From Thermotalea metallivorans (GTDB lineage: Bacteria > Bacillota > Clostridia > Peptostreptococcales > Thermotaleaceae): DNA of 24,000 nucleotides. Made by a program: the position numbers and the translations under genes. The notes beneath the pieces are model-generated. The model had not been told where the DNA came from. It ran no database searches and saw only the letters and a program-made list of their open reading frames with translations. The stretch covers positions 74,144 to 98,143 of the forward strand of contig NZ_LOEE01000046.1 in assembly GCF_001562415.1 (NCBI RefSeq), in the 5' to 3' direction. Shown one piece after another: positions 1 to 21,771 of this stretch (positions are counted from its first letter, which is position 1; every line of letters begins with the position of its first letter).

Positions 1-1431
1 CCCTACCGTGGCTTGATCTGTTTGTTCTACCCTCCAATTGTTCTTTCTGTTGGCCAACTCATCCTTGATCTTTTTCTCCTCATCCCTGATTTTCGCTGCC
101 TTCTCAAAATCTTGAGCGCTAATGGCCTCCTCCTTCTCTTTTAACAATTCTTCCAGCTTTTCCTCTAAATCTTTTAATTCCGGCGGTTGGGTTACCATCT
201 GCAATCTTACCCTGGATGCAGCTTCGTCGATCAAATCTACCGCCTTATCGGGCAAGAATCGATCGGTAATATACCGATGGGATAACTCAGCGGCGGCCTT
301 TAGCGCTTCATCAGTAATCTTTACACGATGATGGGCCTCATATTTATCCCTCAATCCCTTTAGAATCTGCATGGTTTCCTCCACTGTAGGCTCTTCTACA
401 ATGATAGGCTGGAACCTTCTCTCCAAAGCAGGATCTTTTTCCACATGCTTTCTATATTCATCTAGGGTAGTGGCTCCGATCGCCTGCAATTCTCCCCTTG
501 CCAATGCAGGTTTTAGAATATTGGAAGCATCAATGGCCCCTTCTGCGGCCCCTGCGCCGATCATGGTGTGCATTTCATCAATGAACAGGATCACATTTCC
601 TGCTTTTCTCAACTCCTCCATAACCTTTTTCAGCCTATCTTCAAATTCTCCTCTGTATTTGGCACCTGCGACCATGGAAGCCAGATCCAGGGTAACAACC
701 CGCTTGTTTCTAAGAATTTCAGGTATATTGCCTTCTACAATCCTTTGGGCCAACCCTTCGGCAATGGCCGTCTTGCCCACACCAGGCTCGCCGATGAGGC
801 AAGGATTATTTTTTGTTCTCCTGCTAAGAATCTGAACAACCCTTTCAATTTCCTTTTCTCTTCCGATGACCGGGTCCAGCTTCCCCTCTCTGGCCATTTC
901 CGTTAAATCTCTGCCATATTCATTCAGGGTAGGGGTATTTTTTTTATGATTTGTCGTATAGGTATTGGCCTCCATATCTTTATTAGAAACCGAGTTCCCC
1001 AACAGTTTCATAATTTCTTCCCTGGCCTTCGACAGGCTTACACCGCTATCCACCAGTATTTTGGCAGCAATGCCTTCTCCTTCTCTGATTAATCCCAACA
1101 GCAAATGCTCTGTTCCAATATAATTATGCCCCAAAGCCCTTGCTTCTGCAAAGCTTAATTCAAACACCCTTTTGGTTCTGGGTGTAAAGCCGAGAAGTTG
1201 GGCCCCATCTTCATTTCCAAAGCCAATCATGTCCTCAATCTTTTTCTTCAACTGTTCCGTGCTGATTCCCAAGACCATCAACACCTTTGCCGCAATACCT
1301 TCTCCTTCCTTTAGGAGCCCTAACAGCAAGTGTTCTGTGCCTACATAATTATGCCTTAAATTTTGTGCTTCCTCTTGTGCTAATAAAATCGCCTTCTGCG
1401 CTCTTTCGGTAAATCTTCCAAACATCGCCAT
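1..1431 (-). CDS. clpC: ATP-dependent Clp protease ATP-binding subunit ClpC (N-terminal ~477 aa; the 3' end runs off the window)
   Basis: Absent from the ORF track because it is open to the window edge. My minus-strand translation from the ATG at 1431 gives [51 protein letters not shown]..., followed by a second Clp_N repeat ([25 protein letters not shown]). Walker [12 protein letters not shown] is encoded around 770-800. It is the last gene after ctsR-mcsA-mcsB. Confidence 0.93.
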
Positions 1432-1492
1432 ATTGGTAACACCTCCAATAGTTATTTCCTAAAAAATTCATCCATACATGTGTTTTCCTTTC

Positions 1493-2527
1493 TTAACCCT
1501 TTTTTTGAATCTTCTCCCGTATGAGGGCCGCTCTGCGGATATCCCTTTCATGGGCACTCAGAGGTTTTCCTGCTATTTTTTGCAGGTATGCCCCCTGGGA
1601 CATCACCATGATTTGATTGACCACATCCATAGAAATCCCCTTGATAATTTGGGTATCAATGCCCAGCCTCAAATCCGATAAAAGTTGCATACATTCTTGA
1701 GAACTTAAGATTCTTGCATTGGCTAAAACTCCAAAGGACCTGTAGATACGATCTTCCAACTGGATAGGGTTGCTGGACAACAGTGTATTTCTTGCATCCC
1801 TTTCTTTTTGTATAATTTGTAATGTCACATCCTTCAGATTGCTAATAATTTCTGCCTCATTTCTACCAAGGGTAAGCTGATTGGAAATCTGAAAGATGTT
1901 GCCCAAAAACTCTGTTCCTTCTCCATAAATCCCTCGCACCGCCAATCCAATCTGACCAGCAGCTTGCAGGATTCGGTTGATATATCCTGTCATGGTTAAA
2001 GCGGGCAGATGCACCATCACCGAGGCTCGAATCCCCGTTCCTACATTGGTGGGACAAGATGTCAAATAGCCCAACTGCTCATCAAAGGCATACTGAATCC
2101 TTTCCTCCAATACATCATCGATTTTATCTGCAAGATCCCAAGCTTCATTCAATTGGAGTCCTGGCAGCAAACATTGAATGCGAATATGATCTTCTTCGTT
2201 AATCATAATACTGACAGATTCATCCCGATTCAAAAGAACAGCACTTTTTTCCCATTGCTCTGCCAGATGGGAGCTAATCAGGTATGTTTCTACCAACACT
2301 TGCCTTTCCAAGGGGGGCATTTCCTCTAATTCATATAATTTAAATTCATTTTTCAAAGTCGTATTCCCTTCGAGAATCCCGCTGCTGACCTTCTGGATCA
2401 GCTCCTTGCTTTTATGCTTCGTCAGGGCGATAGGAAAAGGAAAATCCTCGATGTTTCTCGCCAAACGAATTCTGCTGCTAATAATAATATCACTTTCAGG
2501 TCCCATCTGTTCCATCCACCTTGCCAT
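1493..2527 (-). CDS. mcsB: Protein arginine kinase McsB (ATP:guanido phosphotransferase family)
   Basis: 344-aa ORF with guanidino-kinase-like motifs (SCPTNVGTGIRASVMVHLPAL). Sits between mcsA and clpC. RBS AGGGGTGA lies upstream of the ATG. Confidence 0.92.
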   Translation of the reverse strand: MARWMEQMGPESDIIISSRIRLARNIEDFPFPIALTKHKSKELIQKVSSGILEGNTTLKNEFKLYELEEMPPLERQVLVETYLISSHLAEQWEKSAVLLNRDESVSIMINEEDHIRIQCLLPGLQLNEAWDLADKIDDVLEERIQYAFDEQLGYLTSCPTNVGTGIRASVMVHLPALTMTGYINRILQAAGQIGLAVRGIYGEGTEFLGNIFQISNQLTLGRNEAEIISNLKDVTLQIIQKERDARNTLLSSNPIQLEDRIYRSFGVLANARILSSQECMQLLSDLRLGIDTQIIKGISMDVVNQIMVMSQGAYLQKIAGKPLSAHERDIRRAALIREKIQKKG

Positions 2528-2539
2528 CGCTTTTCACCC

Positions 2540-3052
2540 CTAATTCAGACTATTCAACTGACTTTCCATTTCACGAATTTGATCCCGCAATACAGCCGCC
2601 CGTTCAAACGCTTCTTTTCGGATAGCATCATCCAGCTCACTTTTCAGCCGCTTAATTTCCTTTTTCAGTCTTATGTTGCCTCCAGCCCGTTTTGGTACTT
2701 TTCCACTATGCACTTCGCTGCCTTGAACCCGCTTAATCAATGGAAACAATTTTTCGCGAAATGCATTATAGCACTGGGCACAACCTAGCCTTCCCAACTG
2801 CTTAAACTTACCGTAGGTCATTCCGCATTGGTCACACTTAGTTGTCTTGATATAATCTACTTTGATCGGAGAATCTTGAATGGAGTCCAACAGCCCTGTC
2901 AGGAAATTGTTGATGGAAAAGGAAGTATCAAAGGGCATTTCTTCACTTTGCTTGGCGCACTGTTCACAGAGATGAAGCTCTGTTTTCTTATCATTCAATA
3001 TTTTGGTCACATGGACCGTGGCAGTTCTTTTATTGCAATTTTCACATAACAT
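2540..3052 (-). CDS. mcsA: McsA, activator of protein arginine kinase (Zn-finger repeats plus UVR motif)
   Basis: Repeated CxxC pairs (CENCNKR...CEQC, CDQCG...CAQC) and a C-terminal UVR-like segment (FERAAVLRDQIREME). The track start (TTG at 3070) overlaps ctsR. I prefer the ATG at 3052, which is preceded by GGAGGGaataaa and lies 1 nt after the ctsR stop. Confidence 0.88.
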   Translation of the reverse strand: MLCENCNKRTATVHVTKILNDKKTELHLCEQCAKQSEEMPFDTSFSINNFLTGLLDSIQDSPIKVDYIKTTKCDQCGMTYGKFKQLGRLGCAQCYNAFREKLFPLIKRVQGSEVHSGKVPKRAGGNIRLKKEIKRLKSELDDAIRKEAFERAAVLRDQIREMESQLNSLN

Positions 3053-3053
3053 T

Positions 3054-3524
3054 TTATTCCCTCCCATCAAAGATAAAGACTGCTGCCAGCATATTTTTAA
3101 ATATGTTGGCCCGAACCTGATCCTTCATATTTACCGGAATGTTGATGCTCCGGTCATTTACAGCAGCAGCCATGAGCCTTCCTTCTCTTTCCGAAATCCA
3201 TTTCTTTTCCACCAATCGACGGATGATTCCTTCTGCTTTTACCCTGCCGATGGCATCTCCAATTTCTTCCATCAATATCTTTAGGTATTGGTTTTTATCC
3301 ACATTGACCTTTACAATTTTAATGCAGCCTCCCCCACCCCTTCTGCTTTCAATCAGATATCCTTTGTCCACTGTAAATCTCGTCATGAGTACATAATTGA
3401 TTTGAGACGGCGCACAATGAAAATAATCGGCCAACTCATTTCTTTGAATTTCTATGGCACGGTTGTTTGATTCCTCCAACAATTCCTTAATAAAGGCTTC
3501 AATAATATTGCTTAGCCTAGACAT
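3054..3524 (-). CDS. ctsR: CtsR, transcriptional repressor of class III stress genes
   Basis: Sequence MSRLSNIIEAFIKELL...AIEIQRNELADYFHCAPSQINYVL...RRGGGG is typical of CtsR. The track ORF start (3587) falls inside the promoter -35 and the ORF reads through the CtsR box. The ATG at 3524, preceded by GGGGAGatgatt, is the realistic start. Confidence 0.92.
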   Translation of the reverse strand: MSRLSNIIEAFIKELLEESNNRAIEIQRNELADYFHCAPSQINYVLMTRFTVDKGYLIESRRGGGGCIKIVKVNVDKNQYLKILMEEIGDAIGRVKAEGIIRRLVEKKWISEREGRLMAAAVNDRSINIPVNMKDQVRANIFKNMLAAVFIFDGRE

Positions 3525-3538
3525 AATCATCTCCCCAT

Positions 3539-3555
3539 TTTGACTTTCTTTGACT
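3539..3555 (-). promoter_or_regulatory. CtsR operator (heptad direct repeat AGTCAAA-GAA-AGTCAAA)
   Basis: The minus strand reads AGTCAAAGAAAGTCAAA. This fully matches the published CtsR box consensus (A/G)GTCAAANAN(A/G)GTCAAA. It starts 3 nt downstream of the -10. Confidence 0.9.
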
Positions 3556-3558
3556 TTT

Positions 3559-3587
3559 ATTTTAAAAAATTTTCCATTCCTTTTCAA
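3559..3587 (-). promoter_or_regulatory. SigA-type promoter of the ctsR operon (TTGAAA - 17 nt - TAAAAT)
   Basis: Minus strand: TTGAAAaggaatggaaaatttttTAAAAT, followed directly by the CtsR box and the RBS. Confidence 0.8.
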
Positions 3588-12014: not shown

Positions 12015-12046
12015 AAGATTTTTTCTCTCCCTAAATATTTTCTATT

Positions 12047-12073
12047 GTGTTTATTATAACACTAGTTTACAAG
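12047..12073. repeat. Terminal inverted repeat of the IS remnant (yjjI-proximal end)
   Basis: GTGTTTATTATAACACTAGTTTACAAG. The reverse complement of the other end is GTGTTATAATAACACCACTTTACAAG. Confidence 0.65.
12053..12061 (-). promoter_or_regulatory. Candidate outward-facing extended -10 (TGtTATAAT) inside the IS terminal repeat, aimed at yjjI
   Basis: The minus strand reads agTGTTATAATaaacac. This is ~38 nt upstream of the yjjI ATG and is followed by RBS AGGGAGAG. Confidence 0.45.
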
Positions 12074-12176
12074 TTTGCCTAATCAATCTTCCTTCCCTGT
12101 AAATAGCATTTAACAGATTCCTTTATTGAAGCATATATTTTGCTATTTTCGAGGGAAGATATGAAACTGTTTTAAA

Positions 12177-12627
12177 TTAATTCTCTATGAAATAGTTGCT
12201 AAATCCCCAAAATAGCTTTTGCTGATAGAATATGACTTCCATATTCCATCGTATACCATAGGCACGGAGAATTAGATTTTCTGATCCTTTTTCTTTACTG
12301 TATCTAGGATGATGCCTTTAGAGTACCAACTGTCCCACAAAAGAATGCCTGGAAAATCTTTTAAATACTTCATAGCACAGTCAATCATCTCTGATGCCAT
12401 TTGTAACTTGCTCTTTTCTTAGTATAGAGCTTATATCCTAGAGAGAGACTTAGAATTCTATTTTCCCCTTGAAAGGATAAGGGGATAGACCGAACTTCTT
12501 CAACAGAGGTAATAGCTAACATTAGCCAAAGGAAAATATTGAAGCTCCGCTTTTTAAAAAGTGAACGGTATTGCAGTAAATATTGCTCTATAGTTTGAAT
12601 AAATGAATCTTTGGATATACTAAGCAT
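12177..12627 (-). pseudogene. DDE transposase remnant (three fragments in different frames)
   Basis: 12385-12627 encodes the N-terminal 80 aa (MLSISKDSFIQTIEQYLLQYRSLFKKRSFNIFLWLMLAI...). 12272-12400 encodes MASEMIDCAMKYLKDFPGILLWDSWYSKGIILD. 12177-12275 encodes LILRAYGIRWNMEVIFYQQKLFWGFSNYFIEN, which carries a Y-x2-R-x3-E-x6-K (YREK) signature. The fragments total ~155 aa, far short of an intact IS4-type transposase. Confidence 0.7.
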
Positions 12628-12722
12628 ATCAGACGCCTCCTAGGGTGTTGGTTACACAAAATTAGTATTCCTAGGATTCAGGTGTCTGATTTTGTTATTT
12701 TTATCCAATTAATCTTTGATTA

Positions 12723-12748
12723 CTTGTAAAGTGGTGTTATTATAACAC
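12723..12748. repeat. Terminal inverted repeat of the IS remnant (transposase 5' end)
   Basis: CTTGTAAAGTGGTGTTATTATAACAC, the inverted partner of 12047-12073. Confidence 0.65.
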
Positions 12749-12773
12749 GATTCTTTTTGTCTCATAAAGCAGA

Positions 12774-12803
12774 AAGACTCCCTGGTTTTTGCCAGAGAGT
12801 CTT
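12774..12803 (-). terminator. Terminator hairpin downstream of the Cys-rich protein gene
   Basis: Minus strand: AAGACTCTCTGG-caaaaa-CCAGGGAGTCTT followed by tctgcttta. One G-U pair; weak T-run. Confidence 0.55.
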
Positions 12804-12813
12804 CGCAACCATT

Positions 12814-13731
12814 TTAATTGCAAGGTGGTTTTGGTTTTTCATCAATTTGATTCGGGAATAACTGCGGGAATGTTGTACAGATCTGCTCAACATTTGCTTC
12901 AAGTACAGGAAATCCCGTAGACAATACACAAAGCTGAACGGGCACCACAATTTTCTTCTCACAGGTTACACACAAGGCAATAATCAAATTGGCCCTTACC
13001 GTGCCCGTTGCCGGATCCACAAAAATATCCCTTCTGATACTGTTTGTAGCCAGTCTGACCTCGCAGTCTATATTGCAAAATTCTGTGAATCTCGGCAAGA
13101 ATGCACTGTCAAACACAGAGGGCAAACACAACTCAAAGAAATTTGTCAGTACCAGCGGTGCAGTGGGCGATGCAATAGGTGCAATGGCCTTAAGCGTTAC
13201 AGCACACTCTTTATCACAGTCATCCGTAAAGATAACATCTATTTCTATTACAACACTTCCTGAAATGGCTATATTTTGTGTCCCGAAGATGGGTGTTCCT
13301 TTTCCTTCTTCATCGCACTCCTGTGTATTGACAAACACAAGTTTTTCAGAGGGTGTTCCATCGGGCCCTATCACCCGTACATCCTTACCCGATCCATCCT
13401 CTACAAAATCGGCACCGGCCAAAGTTGTACTGGGTGTTGCAACTAAATTTCTGGGGTCATTGATGTTTTCCGGATTAAAGAATTTTCTGCACCGGATATC
13501 TGTTACTGCAATAATCCTTGCCCCTCTTCCCAAGGCAGGTGTAAACAATTGGCCTTCTACAGTCCTCAATCCCTGCAAGTTAAACAATGCCGCATCATAA
13601 ACTTTTTGAACGTAGATAGGCTCCGATACAACCTTTTTCAAATTGCCGTCAAAATGACAGCCCGTGGTCGCTGTGCAGCATCTATCTTCAATAGAAAGAT
13701 TCAAGTTTGCACTCTTTTTATTGCATGCCAT
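12814..13731 (-). CDS. Cysteine-rich hypothetical protein (305 aa, 16 Cys, no signal peptide or TM segment)
   Basis: Intact long ORF. GGAGG lies 10 nt before the ATG at 13731; the track start at 13740 is only 1 nt from the RBS. I do not recognise a family. Confidence 0.75.
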   Translation of the reverse strand: MACNKKSANLNLSIEDRCCTATTGCHFDGNLKKVVSEPIYVQKVYDAALFNLQGLRTVEGQLFTPALGRGARIIAVTDIRCRKFFNPENINDPRNLVATPSTTLAGADFVEDGSGKDVRVIGPDGTPSEKLVFVNTQECDEEGKGTPIFGTQNIAISGSVVIEIDVIFTDDCDKECAVTLKAIAPIASPTAPLVLTNFFELCLPSVFDSAFLPRFTEFCNIDCEVRLATNSIRRDIFVDPATGTVRANLIIALCVTCEKKIVVPVQLCVLSTGFPVLEANVEQICTTFPQLFPNQIDEKPKPPCN

Positions 13732-13813
13732 AATTTTCATGCCTCCTCTCTTATATTGGCGGAAATCGGATTGTCCATTCCCACTATCAATATATGGAGG
13801 ATTTATTTTTTGG

Positions 13814-14722: not shown

Positions 14723-15919
14723 CTATGCTACTTTTTTTCCTTGATACTTCACGCCCAAACAGCGATTCATATATTGGCTTGCAATTATCATCAAAATGAT
14801 CATGGCTACTGCCAGAATCCTATGGGCCCAAAAAATATCTGTAGCATCCTTTAATATCCCCATAAATGGAAAGGCAACGGCGGCCGCCACATTAGCCGCC
14901 AAACTTTGAAAAGAAAGAAGGGTAGCCCTCTTATCGGAAGGAATATGTTTATTTAAATATTTAGCAGTAACAGGCCTATACAGACCCCTGGCCATCTGCT
15001 GCAGTAAAATTGCAAAGACACCTATCCAAAGCTTTATGATACTTAATAAAATAAAGGACAAAATCATCAGTGCCGCTATAAAAGTCAAAGTCCTAGGTTT
15101 TGTCAAAGCCATCACGTGATGGCTTCTTCTGGATGTAAAAGCTGCCGTAATATTGAAGATAAAAAAGATAATGCCAAAATATCTTACAGGTATATTTACA
15201 GCTTCCATGTAGGGTTGAAAATACCAAAATCCTACACGATAGAATACAAAAAAAATCATGGAAAACAATAGAACGGCCTTAATTTTTTCATGGGTAAAAA
15301 TATATTGAGCACTCTCTTTCATCTGATCCAGATATTTTTCTCCATAGGGTCCTTTCTTTCCTTCTATGGGCGGTTCTTGAAATCGCAACGCAACAACAAC
15401 GGTAATCATCATGAAAACAATAGAAATGATCATGGGCAGGAAGATATGAACCTCATATACAAAGCCTGCCACAACCGAGCCCACGGCTTGGGCATATAGG
15501 GCAATGCCCCGGGCAAATCCTTCTATCTTCTGATAATTTTCTGTCTTTCCCAATACCTTTAGGGTATCGTATATCAAGGCCCCATCGGCTCCCGATTTTA
15601 ATGTAGCCCCTAAGCTGAATACAATCTCCGCCAACATGAATACGATAAAGTGTTTTCCCAACATGTATATGGACAAACTTACCGCCCACAGGGCTGCTCC
15701 TAAAAGAATGCTGAATTTTCTTCCGAGCTTGTCTGCCAAGGCTCCCGTGGGTACCTCAAATATCACCACCGAAATCGCAGCAACAGATTGCAAAATCATG
15801 ATCTCCGTAAAGGACAAACCCTTGGCAATTAAAAATAAAACAATAATAGGGCCTAAAATCAGCAATTCATGAAATATGGAATAGATATAATAGTTCCTTA
15901 TATTTTTTGCATAGTCCAT
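14723..15919 (-). CDS. MFS transporter (about 12 TM segments)
   Basis: 398 aa, hydrophobic throughout. An MFS-like loop motif, GALADKLGRK, follows TM2. Confidence 0.8.
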   Translation of the reverse strand: MDYAKNIRNYYIYSIFHELLILGPIIVLFLIAKGLSFTEIMILQSVAAISVVIFEVPTGALADKLGRKFSILLGAALWAVSLSIYMLGKHFIVFMLAEIVFSLGATLKSGADGALIYDTLKVLGKTENYQKIEGFARGIALYAQAVGSVVAGFVYEVHIFLPMIISIVFMMITVVVALRFQEPPIEGKKGPYGEKYLDQMKESAQYIFTHEKIKAVLLFSMIFFVFYRVGFWYFQPYMEAVNIPVRYFGIIFFIFNITAAFTSRRSHHVMALTKPRTLTFIAALMILSFILLSIIKLWIGVFAILLQQMARGLYRPVTAKYLNKHIPSDKRATLLSFQSLAANVAAAVAFPFMGILKDATDIFWAHRILAVAMIILMIIASQYMNRCLGVKYQGKKVA

Positions 15920-16083: not shown

Positions 16084-16140
16084 CTTCCCAAACAAGAAAA
16101 GGATCTTTATGATGACAAGATCCTTTTCTTGTTTGGGAAG
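16084..16140 (-). terminator. Long perfect hairpin (24-bp stem) immediately after agrD
   Basis: cttcccaaacaagaaaaggatctt-(9 nt)-aagatccttttcttgtttgggaag. The inner stem, GGATCTT/AAGATCC, is followed by TTTTCTTGTTT on the minus strand. Confidence 0.7.
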
Positions 16141-16144
16141 TTGA

Positions 16145-16264
16145 TTACTTTAATTCTTCTGGCAGTTCCGGCTGATATCCTAGTAAAGTGCAGGCAGATG
16201 CGGCGCTAGTAAATGCAGCAAAAGTAAGCAGCGTGATAGAAAGTTGCAATAATCTTCTTAGCAT
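16145..16264 (-). CDS. agrD: AgrD-type cyclic (thio)lactone autoinducing peptide precursor, 39 aa
   Basis: Too short for the ORF track. My translation is MLRRLLQLSITLLTFAAFTSAASACTLLGYQPELPEELK. It has a hydrophobic or amphipathic leader, a single Cys, and then [Y]QPExPxEL four residues after the Cys, as in clostridial AgrD. The ATG overlaps the agrB stop (ATGCTAA), and a G-rich SD lies upstream. Confidence 0.85.
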   Translation of the reverse strand: MLRRLLQLSITLLTFAAFTSAASACTLLGYQPELPEELK

Positions 16265-16905
16265 ACTCTCCCCCCCCTTTTCATTTGTATTATATTGAGC
16301 AATTCATCTGACCCTTTCCAGAAAGCATATCCTAACTTTGTTATGGAAAAACTCTGGAATAGCAATCCCAAGGAAGATGCCAAGATAATCATGTTTCCTT
16401 TATGAACGGTCTTAAAATATAGTAATATTGAGGTACTCCAGATGCACAACAGTATCAGGGAATATTTTTTTAACCTATATCTTTTGTTTGGGTCCGTTAT
16501 AGGTTTTGCTGGGGTGTCCGCTGGTGCATACTTGGCCACAGCCCAGAAAGAAAAGAGCATTGTAGAAATTGCAATCGGCATTACGTATTGGTAATCAAGG
16601 GAAATAAATTTTGAAATAAAAGCTAAGACGTTTACTGAAATTACGCTGTATAATTCACAATTTAGGGGACTGGAACAATGGGCCCCCCCTGAAAATGACC
16701 TGAAGACGGAAAATGTAATGATAATCATAAGCGCGGGCCAAAATATGTCGAATATCCACGCAAAGCCAAGGGTCAATGTATAGCCAATGATAGACTGCAA
16801 CAGCACTGTTAAAGAATATTTCAGAATCGCTTCCTGTTTTTTTTCTATGTTTAAATGTTTTTTATACATTCCCAGTATAAGATCAATTAATCTTTCTATT
16901 TTCAT
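16258..16905 (-). CDS. agrB: AgrB, membrane peptidase/cyclase that processes AgrD
   Basis: Polytopic membrane protein with RSFSGGAHCSSPLNC. The His-x6-Cys spacing matches the catalytic His77/Cys84 pair of S. aureus AgrB. I prefer the ATG at 16905, preceded by AAGGAGG; the track start at 16932 has no RBS. Confidence 0.88.
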   Translation of the reverse strand: MKIERLIDLILGMYKKHLNIEKKQEAILKYSLTVLLQSIIGYTLTLGFAWIFDIFWPALMIIITFSVFRSFSGGAHCSSPLNCELYSVISVNVLAFISKFISLDYQYVMPIAISTMLFSFWAVAKYAPADTPAKPITDPNKRYRLKKYSLILLCIWSTSILLYFKTVHKGNMIILASSLGLLFQSFSITKLGYAFWKGSDELLNIIQMKRGGRVC

Positions 16906-17065
16906 TCTCCTCCTTCGTTTGTATTTTCCCATATAGGGTTTATGGTTATATTATAAATCAAAGGTAATGTTGAAATTTGTAGAATCTTGTAACTATTTTC
17001 TTTTTTATATGAAATTGAGACTTTAGTCTTAGCTTGTTGGATTTATATTACATTTAAAAAGAATT

Positions 17066-17103
17066 GGCTCCACAAGGCAATCTTGTAGCTAATTTGTGGA
17101 GCC
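17066..17103 (-). terminator. Intrinsic terminator, ~185 nt downstream of the hydrolase stop
   Basis: Minus strand: GGCTCCACAA-(18 nt)-TTGTGGAGCC followed by aattcTTTTT. Confidence 0.6.
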
Positions 17104-17287
17104 TTATTGTATGTTTACTTCAGCATATCCAGTAAAAATTTCTGCAAAAAGTTGTATAAATAATAAGGATTGTAGTATATTATTGCAAAAACAAACTCCT
17201 CAAAATTTCAATTCTGATTCCTCTCCTTTACAAGATAAGTCCTCAGACAGCTAAAGAGACTTCATGGGGGTTTTGGCAACATGAAGT

Positions 17288-17986
17288 TTAGTCTTGCGCT
17301 ATCTCCTCTATCTCACCAAAAAACGTCCTTACATCCTCCATGATTGACTGGGCTGCAATACTTCTTAAAGCCAAATGGCCCCCTTGCTCATAAAATTTTA
17401 ATTTCTTTTTTTCAGTATCGGCTTTTTTATATATATAATTGGCACTATCACTTCTTACGGTATCATCATCTATTGTCTGTATCACCAATAAAGGGCATTT
17501 TATATTTTTGATGATTGGCTTTGTTTTGAGAAGCAGCGACTTGAATTGAAAAAGTGCTGCCAACGGAATATTTCTCGATGCCTTCAAATATCTTCTGATA
17601 TTTCTATAATCTCTTTTTTTGAAGCCGTTTATAATGTTTAGGCATATTCTTTTCAAATTCCAATAATAAATAGGCGAATTGATTGTCACAAGACCATGAA
17701 TTTTATATTTGATCCCCAGATTCATGGCAATCAAACCACCCATGGAAAATCCTATGACAAATACACGGTCACAGGAAGATATCAGCTGAAGTAGCCCCTC
17801 TTCTGCAGAAGTTAACCAATCGTCATAAGTAACTTCCCTTAAATCCTTTTTTCTTCCCGTATGTCCTTTTAAAGTGGGACATATGACTTGATATCCCCTT
17901 TCCTGCAGATATGCGGCCAAAGGACTCACTTCATGAACACTCCCGCCGAAGCCGTGAATAATAAGGCATCCATTATTTTTTCCCAA
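17288..17986 (-). CDS. Alpha/beta hydrolase (carboxylesterase/lipase-like)
   Basis: HGFGGS oxyanion-hole region and the nucleophile elbow GFSMGG. Size (232 aa) fits small Est/YvaK-type esterases. TTG start preceded by AGGGGA. Confidence 0.8.
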   Translation of the reverse strand: MGKNNGCLIIHGFGGSVHEVSPLAAYLQERGYQVICPTLKGHTGRKKDLREVTYDDWLTSAEEGLLQLISSCDRVFVIGFSMGGLIAMNLGIKYKIHGLVTINSPIYYWNLKRICLNIINGFKKRDYRNIRRYLKASRNIPLAALFQFKSLLLKTKPIIKNIKCPLLVIQTIDDDTVRSDSANYIYKKADTEKKKLKFYEQGGHLALRSIAAQSIMEDVRTFFGEIEEIAQD

Positions 17987-18204: not shown

Positions 18205-21200
18205 TTATCCGCATTTAGAAAATCCACAGCTACGGCAGATCATGCAACCCCCTTCATGTTCTACCTTGGATCCGCATTCTGGACAATCATTCTCTCTTTT
18301 TTCCATGGCAACGGATACTTCTTGGTGATATTCACTCTGACACATCTCTGCCATGGAACATAAGGAACAGTTGCTGGCACAGCGATCGATCGTCTCCTCT
18401 TCTATTTCCAATGCCATGTCTTGCACATTGGGTTCTGTTGATTTTACATGCATATTTAATACTTTCTCCAAGGTTCTGCCGATGGCATCGGGGCAAGATA
18501 ATACCTTGATATCCTTGTTTCCTTTCCCTCTTTGGGTCAGGGTTGAATGGCACCGGATGCCTCGCAGTTGTTCAATAATAGCTTCCACGCTTACTCCGGC
18601 CCGCAATGCAATAGATACAATACGACTGGTTGCCTCGCTTTGACTCGGACAACCACCGGCCCTTCCCAGATTCGTGATCACCTCGCAGATTCCTTCATCA
18701 TCATAGTTTGCAGTAATATATAGATTTCCGCATCCGATCCTTACCTTTTCTGTCAATCCCCTTGTAATCTCCGGCCTCGGTCTCGGCGTAATCTGCGATT
18801 TTGCAGCTGCTGGGGTGACCGCTTCCTCCCTTTCTTCTTTTTCCTTTACAGGCCCGATATTCAATACTTGACCTTCCCTGCTGCCGTCACGATAGATAGT
18901 TACGCCCTTGCAACCGAGGGCATAGGCCAAAGTATACACTTCTTCCACGTCTTCCCTTGTAGCATCATGACGGAAATTCACGGTTTTGGATACAGCATTG
19001 TCCACATATTTTTGGAAGGCCGCTTGCATTCGGATATGCCATACCGGTGAAACATCATGGGCTGTCACAAATATCTTTCGAATATGCTCCGGTATTTCCG
19101 GTATGTGGGCCACACCCCCTCTTTCAGCCACCTTTTCCATGAGCGTCTTTGAATAAAGGCCTTCCTTCTTTATCGTTTCTTCGAATAAAGGATGAGTCTC
19201 CACCAACTTATCATTATCCATGACATTCCGGAAATAGGAAATAGCAAAAAGGGGCTCTATGCCGCTGGAAGTTCCGGCAATAATGCTGATTGTTCCCGTA
19301 GGGGCAATTGTTGTCGTCGTTGCATTTCTCAGTTTTATGCCCTTCTTTTCATAGATGCTGCCTTTATAATAAGGGAATACACCCCTTTCCTCTGCCAATC
19401 TCATGGACATTTCCTTGGACTTTTGATCAATAAATTTCATAATCTCCTCTGCCAGTCTTACGCCTTCTTCAGAGTCATAGGAAATACCTAATTGGATTAA
19501 CATATCTGCAAAACCCATAACGCCTAAGCCAATCTTCCTCGTTCCTTTTGTCATCTCTTCAATGGCTTGCAGCGGATAATTGTTCACATCGATTACATTA
19601 TCCAAAAAGTGTACTGCCAAGTAAACCACTTCTTGTAATTTATCATAATCTATATATTTTTTCCCGCCATCGTCCTTGATCATTCTGGCAAGATTAATAG
19701 ACCCCAGATTGCAGGATTCATAAGGAAGCAGCGGTTGCTCCCCACAGTTGTGGACAATGATACCATTTCCTATAAGAGAATGTGTAATCTCTTCTGAAAT
19801 ATCATATACTTCCGCTTCTTCACTTTCTCTAATGAATTTTACCTTACTTGTATATTTTGTATTTTTTCTAGAAGCACTATTGATTTGTTCTAATTTTTCA
19901 TTCTTCCTTTCATGTAATAGTTTAAAGATTATATGTTTAAAGCTGCAAATATCATTTCCATTTATAATCAATTCGTAACAAGGTGTAGAATCATATTGTC
20001 TTTCTCCTCCGTTTTGTGTTACATAAATAAAATTTGAAGTTTCTTCCTTTGTTCTATCGTAGATGTTGGAGAATATACCGAAATTTAATAACAGCAATTG
20101 TACATCTTGTAAAAGTTCTAAAGAACTTGAACTAATGCGAATGTCCCTGTGATTTTCATCTACATAATTTATTGTTCCGTCTGAGCTGAAAAGTCCGTTT
20201 ATATAAGCTGCTACAGTTTTTTCTGAAGCCGTAAATATTGATTTAGGAACCCTTTTTTCATGGACTCGTTTTGCTTCAAAGCCAAAAGATTTGATTAACT
20301 CTACAAACTCTTTTCTCTTAAACAACAATTGCCATGTTCCATTTTCTCCCTCATTGACAATCCCTTCCCCTGCGCCAAATTTCTCTGCAATTTGCTGCAT
20401 TCTTTCCATGATATATTTCTCATCGGATGAAAAAAACATTCCCACTACTTTTTCATCGACCGTTAACCACCCGTTTCCCGTAAACCATCCCAAAAATAGC
20501 CCCAGTTCTTCGCCAATATCATCGGATACGGCCCAATTTCCTGCTCCCGACTGAACGAATACTTCATCTTCTACACTTAATTTTTCAGCTTCTATCCATC
20601 CCTTCACTGTTAAAATCTTATGTTCCGGTGTTACTTTGATCTTCTGTCCATTATCCAAACAAATTTCTATCGTTTTTTTTGTCCCCGTTTTGAAAACCCT
20701 TGCTTTTCTTAGTGTAACGCCATTTTCATAATATTCTCTTCTATGATGAATCATCTTTCCATTGATTGCTCTATTATCCGTAAGAATGTCAATTTCTCCA
20801 TCTTTATATTTATCAAATACATCCTTGATCTTTTCAAGCCCATTTATTGTTGAAATATAGGTGTCGCCATGAAGACACGGATTCGTACTCTCTATTTCCC
20901 CTATGGCCGGCGTAGGATTGTCTCTGTTTAATCGGTCTAAGAATATAATCCCCGGCTCTCCGTTGGTCCACGCCATATCGACAATCATATCAAAAACTTT
21001 TCTTCCATTGATTCGGCCTGCAATCTTTTTTGTATGGGGATCTACCAAATCATATTCCGTTCCATTCTTTACAGCTTCCATAAAAGCCTCTGTAATCCCT
21101 ACACTAATATTAAAATTTGTAATCTCGTCGTTATCCTTTTTGCACTGGATGAATTCCAATATATCGGGATGATCTACCCGTAAGATTCCCATGTTGGCTC

Positions 21201-21687
21201 CTCTGCGCGTACCACCTTGTTTCACTGCTTCTGTAGCTGCATTAAAAACCTTCATAAAACTGACAGGTCCGGAAGCCACCCCGCCTGTTGAGGCAACCGT
21301 CGATCCCTTCGGCCTCAATCTAGAAAAACTAAAGCCTGTCCCTCCACCGGATTTATGTATAATTGCGGCATTTTTGATAGCATCAAAAATGCCTTCCATG
21401 GTATCCTCTACGGGCAGTACAAAACATGCAGAAAGTTGCCCTAATTCTCTTCCTGCATTCATCAGTGTTGGAGAGTTTGGCAAAAACTCCAGATTGGTCA
21501 TCATATTGTAGAATTTATCCTCTAAAGTCTGAAGGTCGGCATTGGGATTATATATCCTATCTGCCTTTGCAACATGTCTTGCTACCCTTCGAAACATCTC
21601 TTCTACCGTTTCTATCACTTCGCCTTTTTCATTCTTTGCCAGATATCGTCTTTCAAGAACCTTTAAGGCATTCTCTGAAATCTGCAT
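18205..21687 (-). CDS. nrdJ: Adenosylcobalamin-dependent (class II) ribonucleotide reductase NrdJ, interrupted by an intein, with a C-terminal Cys-rich zinc-finger tail
   Basis: N-terminus MQISENALKVLERRYL. The extein junction ESTNP|C...HN|CGEQPLLPYESCNLGSINL restores the conserved TNPCGEQ active-site motif. The C-terminus carries CPECG...CMICRSCGFSKCG. The ATG at 21687 is preceded by AGGAGGtaggatt. The track start at 21771 lies inside the promoter -35. Confidence 0.9.
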   Translation of the reverse strand: MQISENALKVLERRYLAKNEKGEVIETVEEMFRRVARHVAKADRIYNPNADLQTLEDKFYNMMTNLEFLPNSPTLMNAGRELGQLSACFVLPVEDTMEGIFDAIKNAAIIHKSGGGTGFSFSRLRPKGSTVASTGGVASGPVSFMKVFNAATEAVKQGGTRRGANMGILRVDHPDILEFIQCKKDNDEITNFNISVGITEAFMEAVKNGTEYDLVDPHTKKIAGRINGRKVFDMIVDMAWTNGEPGIIFLDRLNRDNPTPAIGEIESTNPCLHGDTYISTINGLEKIKDVFDKYKDGEIDILTDNRAINGKMIHHRREYYENGVTLRKARVFKTGTKKTIEICLDNGQKIKVTPEHKILTVKGWIEAEKLSVEDEVFVQSGAGNWAVSDDIGEELGLFLGWFTGNGWLTVDEKVVGMFFSSDEKYIMERMQQIAEKFGAGEGIVNEGENGTWQLLFKRKEFVELIKSFGFEAKRVHEKRVPKSIFTASEKTVAAYINGLFSSDGTINYVDENHRDIRISSSSLELLQDVQLLLLNFGIFSNIYDRTKEETSNFIYVTQNGGERQYDSTPCYELIINGNDICSFKHIIFKLLHERKNEKLEQINSASRKNTKYTSKVKFIRESEEAEVYDISEEITHSLIGNGIIVHNCGEQPLLPYESCNLGSINLARMIKDDGGKKYIDYDKLQEVVYLAVHFLDNVIDVNNYPLQAIEEMTKGTRKIGLGVMGFADMLIQLGISYDSEEGVRLAEEIMKFIDQKSKEMSMRLAEERGVFPYYKGSIYEKKGIKLRNATTTTIAPTGTISIIAGTSSGIEPLFAISYFRNVMDNDKLVETHPLFEETIKKEGLYSKTLMEKVAERGGVAHIPEIPEHIRKIFVTAHDVSPVWHIRMQAAFQKYVDNAVSKTVNFRHDATREDVEEVYTLAYALGCKGVTIYRDGSREGQVLNIGPVKEKEEREEAVTPAAAKSQITPRPRPEITRGLTEKVRIGCGNLYITANYDDEGICEVITNLGRAGGCPSQSEATSRIVSIALRAGVSVEAIIEQLRGIRCHSTLTQRGKGNKDIKVLSCPDAIGRTLEKVLNMHVKSTEPNVQDMALEIEEETIDRCASNCSLCSMAEMCQSEYHQEVSVAMEKRENDCPECGSKVEHEGGCMICRSCGFSKCG
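19747..20877 (-). mobile_element. Intein (377 aa) with a LAGLIDADG homing-endonuclease domain, in-frame within nrdJ
   Basis: Block A CLHGDTYISTING, block B VTPEHKIL, LAGLIDADG-like motifs LGLFLGWFTGNGWL and AAYINGLFSSDGTI, and blocks F/G EVYDISEEITHSLIGNGIIVHN followed by the +1 Cys. The DNA is visibly more AT-rich than the flanking extein. Confidence 0.88.
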
Positions 21688-21742
21688 AATCCTACCTCCT
21701 ATAACTACATTTGGTATAGCTGCCAAAGTTGGTGTACTAAAT

Positions 21743-21771
21743 ATTGTATCATCTGACCATAGGAATGTCAA
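21743..21771 (-). promoter_or_regulatory. SigA-type promoter of nrdJ (TTGACA - 17 nt - TACAAT)
   Basis: Minus strand: TTGACAttcctatggtcagatgaTACAAT, ~55 nt upstream of the nrdJ ATG. Confidence 0.75.

Follow-up and report, generated by a model that had tools for sequence, protein, structure and literature searches.

Can an agrB-agrD gene pair that has no receiver beside it still act as a signalling unit, and if so, where would its signal be received? The question is raised by the minus strand of a 24,000-nt stretch of the Thermotalea metallivorans genome (the window), for which the original prediction proposed a stand-alone signal-production module consisting of an AgrB-like membrane protein and a short AgrD-like precursor peptide. 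Our analysis confirmed a two-gene agrBD operon, with no local receiver in the window. We consider it very probable that the operon is functional and self-contained and that its receptor is most likely an unlinked kinase.

AgrB and its catalytic pair

The first gene, agrB (positions 16258..16905, minus strand), encodes a 215-aa predicted membrane cysteine endopeptidase/cyclase that would process AgrD. In a profile search, the protein matched the Pfam AgrB family PF04647 with an E-value of 7.8e-42 and a score of 143.1 bits (cut-off 23), the alignment spanning residues 13-188 and model positions 7-185 of 185. The identification of this protein as AgrB from its GGAH-x6-C signature therefore stands, as the motif FSGGAHCSSPLNC corresponds to H76-x6-C83 and neither residue varies in a 19-sequence alignment of the window protein and 18 homologues. 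For AgrB of Staphylococcus aureus, Qiu et al. reportedly established in 2005 that H77 and C84 are the catalytic residues, and we take H76 and C83 of GGAH-x6-C to be their equivalents. A crude Kyte-Doolittle scan found at least four hydrophobic segments, as in a polytopic membrane protein; the AgrB profile matched no solved structure. Taken from its motif and family membership, the protein should be the enzyme that cleaves and cyclises AgrD.

Public records differ in where they start the gene: GenBank lists a 'hypothetical' protein of 215 aa (KXG74836.1) and RefSeq an 'accessory gene regulator ArgB-like protein' of 224 aa (WP_083525094.1), the length obtained from an alternative upstream ATG at 16932. 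We favour the 215-aa start because a strong Shine-Dalgarno site (GAAGGAGGAG, 16916-16907) precedes it, the N-termini of homologues coincide with it and KXG74836.1 has this length.

The AgrD precursor and its predicted ring

Immediately downstream of agrB is agrD (16145..16264, minus strand), whose 39 codons translate to the predicted autoinducing-peptide precursor MLRRLLQLSITLLTFAAFTSAASACTLLGYQPELPEELK, exactly where such a reading frame had been proposed. It had also been described as unlisted, which holds for the ORF track examined at the time, where an ORF-length threshold alone accounts for its absence, and not for other sources: the frame appears in a listing with a minimum of 25 aa, in the Logan gene calls and in GenBank/RefSeq, where the identical protein (KXG74835.1 / WP_083525093.1) is already named 'cyclic lactone autoinducer peptide'. 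Both genes of the pair are thus already in public annotation, and AgrD is already labelled as an autoinducer in RefSeq.

The peptide matched the NCBIfam model TIGR04223 ('AgrD family cyclic lactone autoinducer peptide') with a score of 40.7 bits, above the cut-off of 19, and an E-value of 1.9e-10, the alignment covering residues 10-39 and model positions 8-37 of 38. No Pfam family was matched at E-values up to 10, and hence no staphylococcal AgrD model. The Pfam AgrD model is built on staphylococcal sequences and does not define the wider family, so that a miss is expected for a non-staphylococcal AgrD. The three parts anticipated for the peptide, a hydrophobic leader, a single Cys and an acidic Pro-containing tail, are the leader MLRRLLQLSITLLTFAAFTSAASA, the predicted ring CTLLG, in which the nucleophile C25 is followed by TLLG, and the recognition tail YQPELPEELK. 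The P-x-x-P motif of the tail has been described (PMC8748961).

To place this architecture in a family context, we used an AgrB-alignment scan of species-representative genomes, which provided 30 related loci with AgrB proteins 28-44% identical to that of the window; this set does not include the window's own genome, and the best AgrB match in it is 44% identical. Genera represented include Geosporobacter, Anaerosolibacter, Marinisporobacter, Alkaliphilus, Peptoclostridium, Wukongibacter and Maledivibacter. At every one of the 30 loci, an ORF of 39-45 codons starts no more than a few nucleotides away from the agrB stop and encodes a peptide of the same architecture, with the register A-[C/S/T]-x4-YQPxxP. 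The aligned consensus reads MKRRLLQL....LTFLAF.NAASA-C-xxxx-YQPELPE.L; no variation occurs at A24, Q31, P32 or P35 or in the distance between position 25 and YQP, whereas the four residues that follow position 25 are hypervariable. A hypervariable ring held at fixed spacing is the pattern expected if AgrB reads YQPxxP, cuts before the Tyr and cyclises on residue 25. The comparison thereby defines a tight AgrD subfamily, A-[C/S/T]-x4-YQPxxP.

This register supports a five-residue thiolactone, c(CTLLG), as the product of AgrD, and the five-membered ring put forward in the original prediction gains support from the fixed Cys-x4-YQP spacing (30/30 loci). That prediction had set the ring boundaries by comparison with the Clostridium perfringens precursor; published work gives CLWFT as the ring of the C. 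perfringens autoinducing peptide (AIP), with His as the following residue, so the register argument holds. A tail-less peptide has been proposed in that species. For the window, a comparable N-terminus is suggested by A22-x-A24, a nearly invariant motif of the AgrD family located immediately before the nucleophile: cleavage there by signal peptidase would leave a tail-less or very short-tailed AIP.

Could the 39-codon ORF instead be a chance reading frame, with agrB the only real gene? The ORF is short and has no Pfam match, but this explanation is refuted by the comparative data, as the TIGR04223 match lies above the curated cut-off, at all 30 related loci agrB is followed by an ORF that encodes this motif, and a sister strain differs in agrD by two synonymous and no nonsynonymous changes. 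We give this explanation practically no credence. The sister strain is represented by two Logan metagenome contigs, L001 and L002, with an identical AgrD and an AgrB that is 94% identical.

The probable agrBD transcription unit

The two genes overlap by 7 nt (ATGCTAA, 16258..16264, minus strand), as can be read directly from the sequence and as had been noted originally: the agrD ATG is at 16264-16262 and the agrB stop TAA at 16260-16258. A G-rich Shine-Dalgarno-like run (16275-16266) precedes the agrD ATG, and agrB/agrD overlaps of -3 to -9 nt are common among the relatives. This arrangement suggests that translation of the two genes is coupled.

Upstream of agrB, about 70 nt (16940..17010, minus strand) are essentially identical in L001, where the mean column identity of the whole aligned region is 93%, and we regard this segment as a putative promoter or regulatory region of agrBD. 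It contains a perfect -10 element (TATAAT, 16955-16950) with no recognisable -35 element, the -35 position being covered by tandem TACAAGATTC/TACAAATTTC repeats. Because of this combination the segment looks like an activator-dependent promoter; a consensus promoter scan listed no site within 16940-17010. Sigma-70-like sites at 17160-17203 were considered as the agrB promoter and rejected: the hydrolase terminator lies between them and agrB, and the 52-nt segment that contains them is missing from L001. The terminator-like element in question (17056..17103, minus strand) is an inverted repeat, GGCTCCACAA/TTGTGGAGCC (17066-17103), that is followed by a T run (AATTCTTTTT) and is conserved in L001; it would end the upstream alpha/beta-hydrolase gene (17288-17986) and so separate it from agrBD.

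At the other end of the unit, a perfect hairpin (16084..16140, minus strand) begins 4 nt past the agrD stop. A long perfect hairpin had been described here originally; it has a 24-bp stem and a 9-nt loop, and its arms (16084-16107 and 16117-16140) are 100% complementary, with a folding energy of -38.8 kcal/mol and a z-score of -8.8 relative to shuffled sequences. No U tract accompanies the hairpin, which went unrecognised in the scan for intrinsic terminators, so that termination at this point is not assured. At least 12 related loci have a stem of 14-23 bp directly after the agrD stop, with unrelated sequences, and L001 keeps the stem, in which an A-T pair has become G-C by a compensatory change and a G-C pair has become G-U; the hairpin is thus a conserved feature of the 3' end of the agrBD mRNA. 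In the relatives, the genes that come after agrD begin beyond this structure. It is probably either the actual end of the transcript or an element that stabilises it. Two other explanations for the hairpin were tried and set aside. It is not the mark of a deletion, as similar hairpins follow agrD in relatives that keep the kinase, nor is it a repeated element, as its arm occurs only once in the window.

No receiver among the neighbouring genes

Downstream of agrBD is a gene for an MFS transporter (14723..15919, minus strand; Pfam MFS_1). The promoter scan gave it a separate sigma-70-like site, TTGACG-17-TAAAAT, at 16001-15973, in agreement with the earlier proposal that this gene has a promoter of its own. 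It adjoins agrBD in none of the 30 relatives, which places it outside the conserved agr module, and in L001 it is split into two ORFs.

Besides the MFS and hydrolase genes, the window contains clpC, mcsB, mcsA, ctsR, an EF-G paralogue, hisC, a NIF3-like gene, sodC, a YjjI glycyl-radical enzyme with its activase, a PrcB/Cu_amine_oxidN1 protein, an intein-containing class II ribonucleotide reductase, a Thioredoxin_9 protein, pepV and a 308-aa protein without a Pfam match; apart from the last, all are assigned to non-signalling families. By Pfam assignment, kinase, receiver and LytTR domains are absent from all 17 other genes of the window, and phmmer queries with AgrA, CheY and Spo0F sequences brought up neither a receiver nor a LytTR protein there. 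The two approaches agree with the earlier observation that an AgrC-type kinase and an AgrA/LytTR regulator are both missing from the window. Rfam identified no known RNA in the window and hence nothing resembling RNAIII. The locus is accordingly not a complete agrBDCA system, having neither an AgrC-type kinase nor an AgrA-type LytTR regulator, and its 'orphan' status covers about 16 kb downstream and about 7 kb upstream of agrBD. A PepV-based metagenome scan returned only relatives of at most 72% identity, none with agr synteny.

A kinase pair adjoins agrBD in relatives

In 28 of the 30 relatives, agrD and its hairpin are followed by two further genes, here called c1 and c2. The c1 product is a membrane protein of about 160 aa with about five hydrophobic segments, for which profile searches found no Pfam family and no PDB relative. 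The c2 product is a protein of about 290 aa with two TM segments, a SPOB_a-type dimerisation/His domain (HDFNNHLN) and a GHKL ATPase, and its profile aligned with the kinase module of S. aureus AgrC (6e52) across the DHp and CA domains with an E-value of 2.7e-18. The pair has the appearance of an AgrC divided between two polypeptides. Within 10 kb of these loci, only one receiver-domain protein was found, a CheY-like protein at locus L012. The candidate receptor of the subfamily would thus be an uncharacterised five-TM protein together with a short AgrC-like kinase, with the response regulator not nearby. The same agrB-agrD-c1-c2 order is found in a Logan candidate from other samples (P0066), which is a normal locus of this type.

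Neither c1 nor c2 is present in the window, L001 or L002, and the window therefore lacks the agrB-agrD-c1-c2 module of its own subfamily. A tblastn search with 60 c1/c2 proteins detected no remnant in the window, and neither a deletion scar nor a c1/c2 pseudogene turned up in the interval from agrD to the MFS gene. In a neighbour-joining tree, for which no bootstrap support was computed, the window AgrB is nested inside the kinase-bearing clade, which indicates that the absence of c1-c2 is derived.

These observations can be read in two ways. The Thermotalea lineage may have lost c1 and c2 altogether while continuing to make the signal, in which case the peptide could cross-inhibit the AgrC-like receptors of neighbours, serve a non-signalling role or be detected by a non-homologous sensor. 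The regular position of c1-c2 directly after agrD in the relatives, its traceless disappearance from the window and both sister contigs, and the nesting of the window AgrB all fit such a loss, as does the purifying selection that agrBD still experiences without an adjacent kinase (see below). If true, it would be a natural 'sender without a receiver'. We nevertheless judge it unlikely. The absence of the kinase covers the 24,000 nt of the window, and a kinase missing from the locus need not be missing from the genome: of the two relatives in which no kinase follows agrD directly, one, Peptoclostridium litorale, has a c1-c2 pair on another contig, away from any agrBD. P. litorale may therefore be taken as an example, from this same family, of a sender and a receiver that are encoded apart, and an unlinked kinase is the receptor that we prefer for the window as well. 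Profile searches with c1 and c2 gave no row named Thermotalea, but rows bear only the names of cluster representatives, and the cluster with the window AgrB is likewise unlabelled though it contains KXG74836.1, so the missing label is uninformative. Under either reading, sender and receiver modules can unlink or be lost within this AgrB clade, and the c1-c2 comparison offers a concrete route to the receptors of 'orphan' agrBD loci.

Selection on agrBD

Comparison of the window with its sister strain, from which it differs by a dS of about 0.18, gave a dN/dS of 0.15 for agrB, and the housekeeping neighbours have values of 0.07-0.10. The agrBD pair is under purifying selection, with agrB and agrD comparable to these neighbours.

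These values bear on whether agrBD might be a decaying, non-functional leftover of a locus whose adjacent kinase was deleted. Such decay could account for the missing receptor genes that usually follow agrD, and the neighbouring MFS gene is indeed broken in the sister strain. Yet both ORFs are intact and full length and retain all family-invariant residues, the low agrB dN/dS is accompanied by an AgrD that has stayed identical despite the synonymous divergence of the strains, and the promoter region and hairpin are conserved in L001. We consider decay very improbable and return to the functional operon as the preferred reading.

Proposed mechanism

In the model that we propose for the functional operon, how the ring is closed, where the N-terminus is cut, where the transcript starts and ends and what receives the signal are inferred from motifs and comparison. 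A bicistronic mRNA would begin in the conserved region 5' of agrB and be ended or stabilised by the 24-bp hairpin. AgrD would enter the membrane via its amphipathic leader, where AgrB, using His76 and Cys83, would read the YQPELPEEL tail, cut after Gly29 and pass the acyl group to Cys25 to form c(CTLLG). The leader would then be removed, likely by signal peptidase at the A-x-A motif, leaving a tail-less or very short-tailed peptide that, once released, could serve as a cell-density signal. Its receptor would be encoded away from the operon and would most likely be an unlinked AgrC-like bipartite kinase, or else another kinase, as VirS is in C. perfringens.

Comparison with known agr systems

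Loci with agrBD and no linked two-component system are well documented in Clostridia, and the window is an uncharacterised further example. With it, the long list of such clostridial loci gains a predicted AIP, c(CTLLG), from an anaerobe that is thermophilic and reduces metals. It has one unusual trait, which is that the sensor-kinase genes that adjoin agrBD in nearly all close relatives are missing.

In S. aureus agrBDCA, the AgrB His-x6-Cys pair, the three-part AgrD and the five-membered ring are all as seen or predicted in the window, whereas the window locus is without agrC, agrA and RNAIII. Clostridium autoethanogenum has the arrangements agrD1-agrC1-agrB1 and agrD2-agrC2 with no agrA, and thus keeps a local AgrC, whereas the window keeps agrB and agrD only. 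The incomplete loci of Clostridioides difficile and Clostridium botulinum likewise have only the signal-production genes: C. difficile agr1, consisting of agrB1D1 only, is present in all analysed genomes of the species, and the two-component system that senses AgrD1 is unidentified, while C. botulinum has two agrBD loci, agr-1 and agr-2. These differ from the window in the low similarity of their AgrB proteins, neither name being among the AgrB matches (where rows are named by cluster representative), and in their outputs, which are toxins and sporulation.

The agrBD locus of C. perfringens provides a close parallel, as it has no two-component system upstream or downstream and its receiver is the unlinked VirS/VirR. 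The two loci also share a five-residue thiolactone, predicted in the case of the window, a small-residue motif directly before the ring, an aromatic or His residue after it and an active peptide that is probably tail-less. They differ in the ring itself (CLWFT versus CTLLG) and in the host, a pathogen in one case and a thermophilic metal-reducing member of the Peptostreptococcales in the other, and also in that the subfamily of the window normally has an adjacent kinase. By descent, the window belongs with the agrB-agrD-c1-c2 relatives (Geosporobacter, Anaerosolibacter, Marinisporobacter, Alkaliphilus, Wukongibacter and others), with which it shares the AgrB clade (35-44% identity), the A-[C/S/T]-x4-YQPxxP motif of AgrD and the long hairpin directly 3' of agrD; those loci continue with c1 and c2, whereas the window has neither.

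A conserved kinase gene pair downstream of agrD

Among the 30 related loci recovered in the genome scan with the AgrB alignment (L003-L032), 28 carry a conserved pair of genes, c1-c2, on the 3' side of agrD, as for example at L011:10849-12210, L003:10826-12414 and L005:10909-12380. The first gene of the pair, c1, encodes a five-TM protein of ~160 aa for which no relatives were found in either Pfam or PDB. The second, c2, encodes a ~290-aa, 2-TM protein with SPOB_a and GHKL kinase domains and a profile match to the kinase module of S. aureus AgrC. A response regulator within 10 kb is missing from nearly all of these loci. Together, c1 and c2 resemble an AgrC-type receptor divided between two proteins, which would act as an orphan kinase.

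In Peptoclostridium litorale, agrBD (L004, NZ_FSRH01000010.1) and c1-c2 (L110:5508-6861, JJMM01000004.1) lie on separate contigs; this organism is a natural case of sender and receiver modules that are unlinked inside this agr family.

DNA and genes flanking agrBD in the window

Upstream of agrB, a 52-nt segment (window ~17163-17214) between the alpha/beta-hydrolase gene and its terminator hairpin is missing from L001, a sister-strain metagenome contig, and every sigma-70-like hit listed on the upstream side of agrB falls within it. A 17-nt direct repeat (window 16983-16999, AATCTTGTAACTATTTT; 17079-17095, AATCTTGTAGCTAATTT; 88% identity, 96 nt apart) has its first copy in the conserved stretch that precedes agrB and its second within the hydrolase terminator's loop, and may be a regulator site or may reflect chance in AT-rich DNA. 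Downstream of agrD, the MFS transporter gene (window 14723-15919) is intact and encodes 398 aa; the same gene in the sister-strain contig (L001:8270-9467) is split into two ORFs of 275 aa and 129 aa, through either a frameshift or an assembly error.

The window also encodes an intein-interrupted class II-type ribonucleotide reductase (18205-21771, minus strand; Ribonuc_red_lgN, lgC and TSCPD), the intein of which carries a LAGLIDADG homing-endonuclease domain. A Cys-rich 308-aa protein (12814-13740, minus strand) gave no Pfam match, and its exact sequence as read was not in the protein collection; its gene adjoins an unusually long gap of 799 nt (12015-12813) without a large ORF. Positions 1-3587 (minus strand) hold the class III heat-shock operon ctsR-mcsA-mcsB-clpC, ordinary in Bacillota, with clpC continuing past the window start.

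The predicted ring-forming residue of the AgrD subfamily

In the AgrD subfamily alignment (A3), the column of C25, the predicted ring-forming Cys of the window AgrD, is occupied by Cys in 18 members, Thr in eight (L003, L004, L005, L010, L013, L017, L022 and L031) and Ser in four (L016, L020, L030 and L032), and the spacing from this residue to the YQP that starts the recognition tail is strictly constant across all three kinds of member. Ser lactones are known; we know of no characterised AgrD peptide with Thr at the ring-forming position, and such a residue would imply a threonine-lactone ring.
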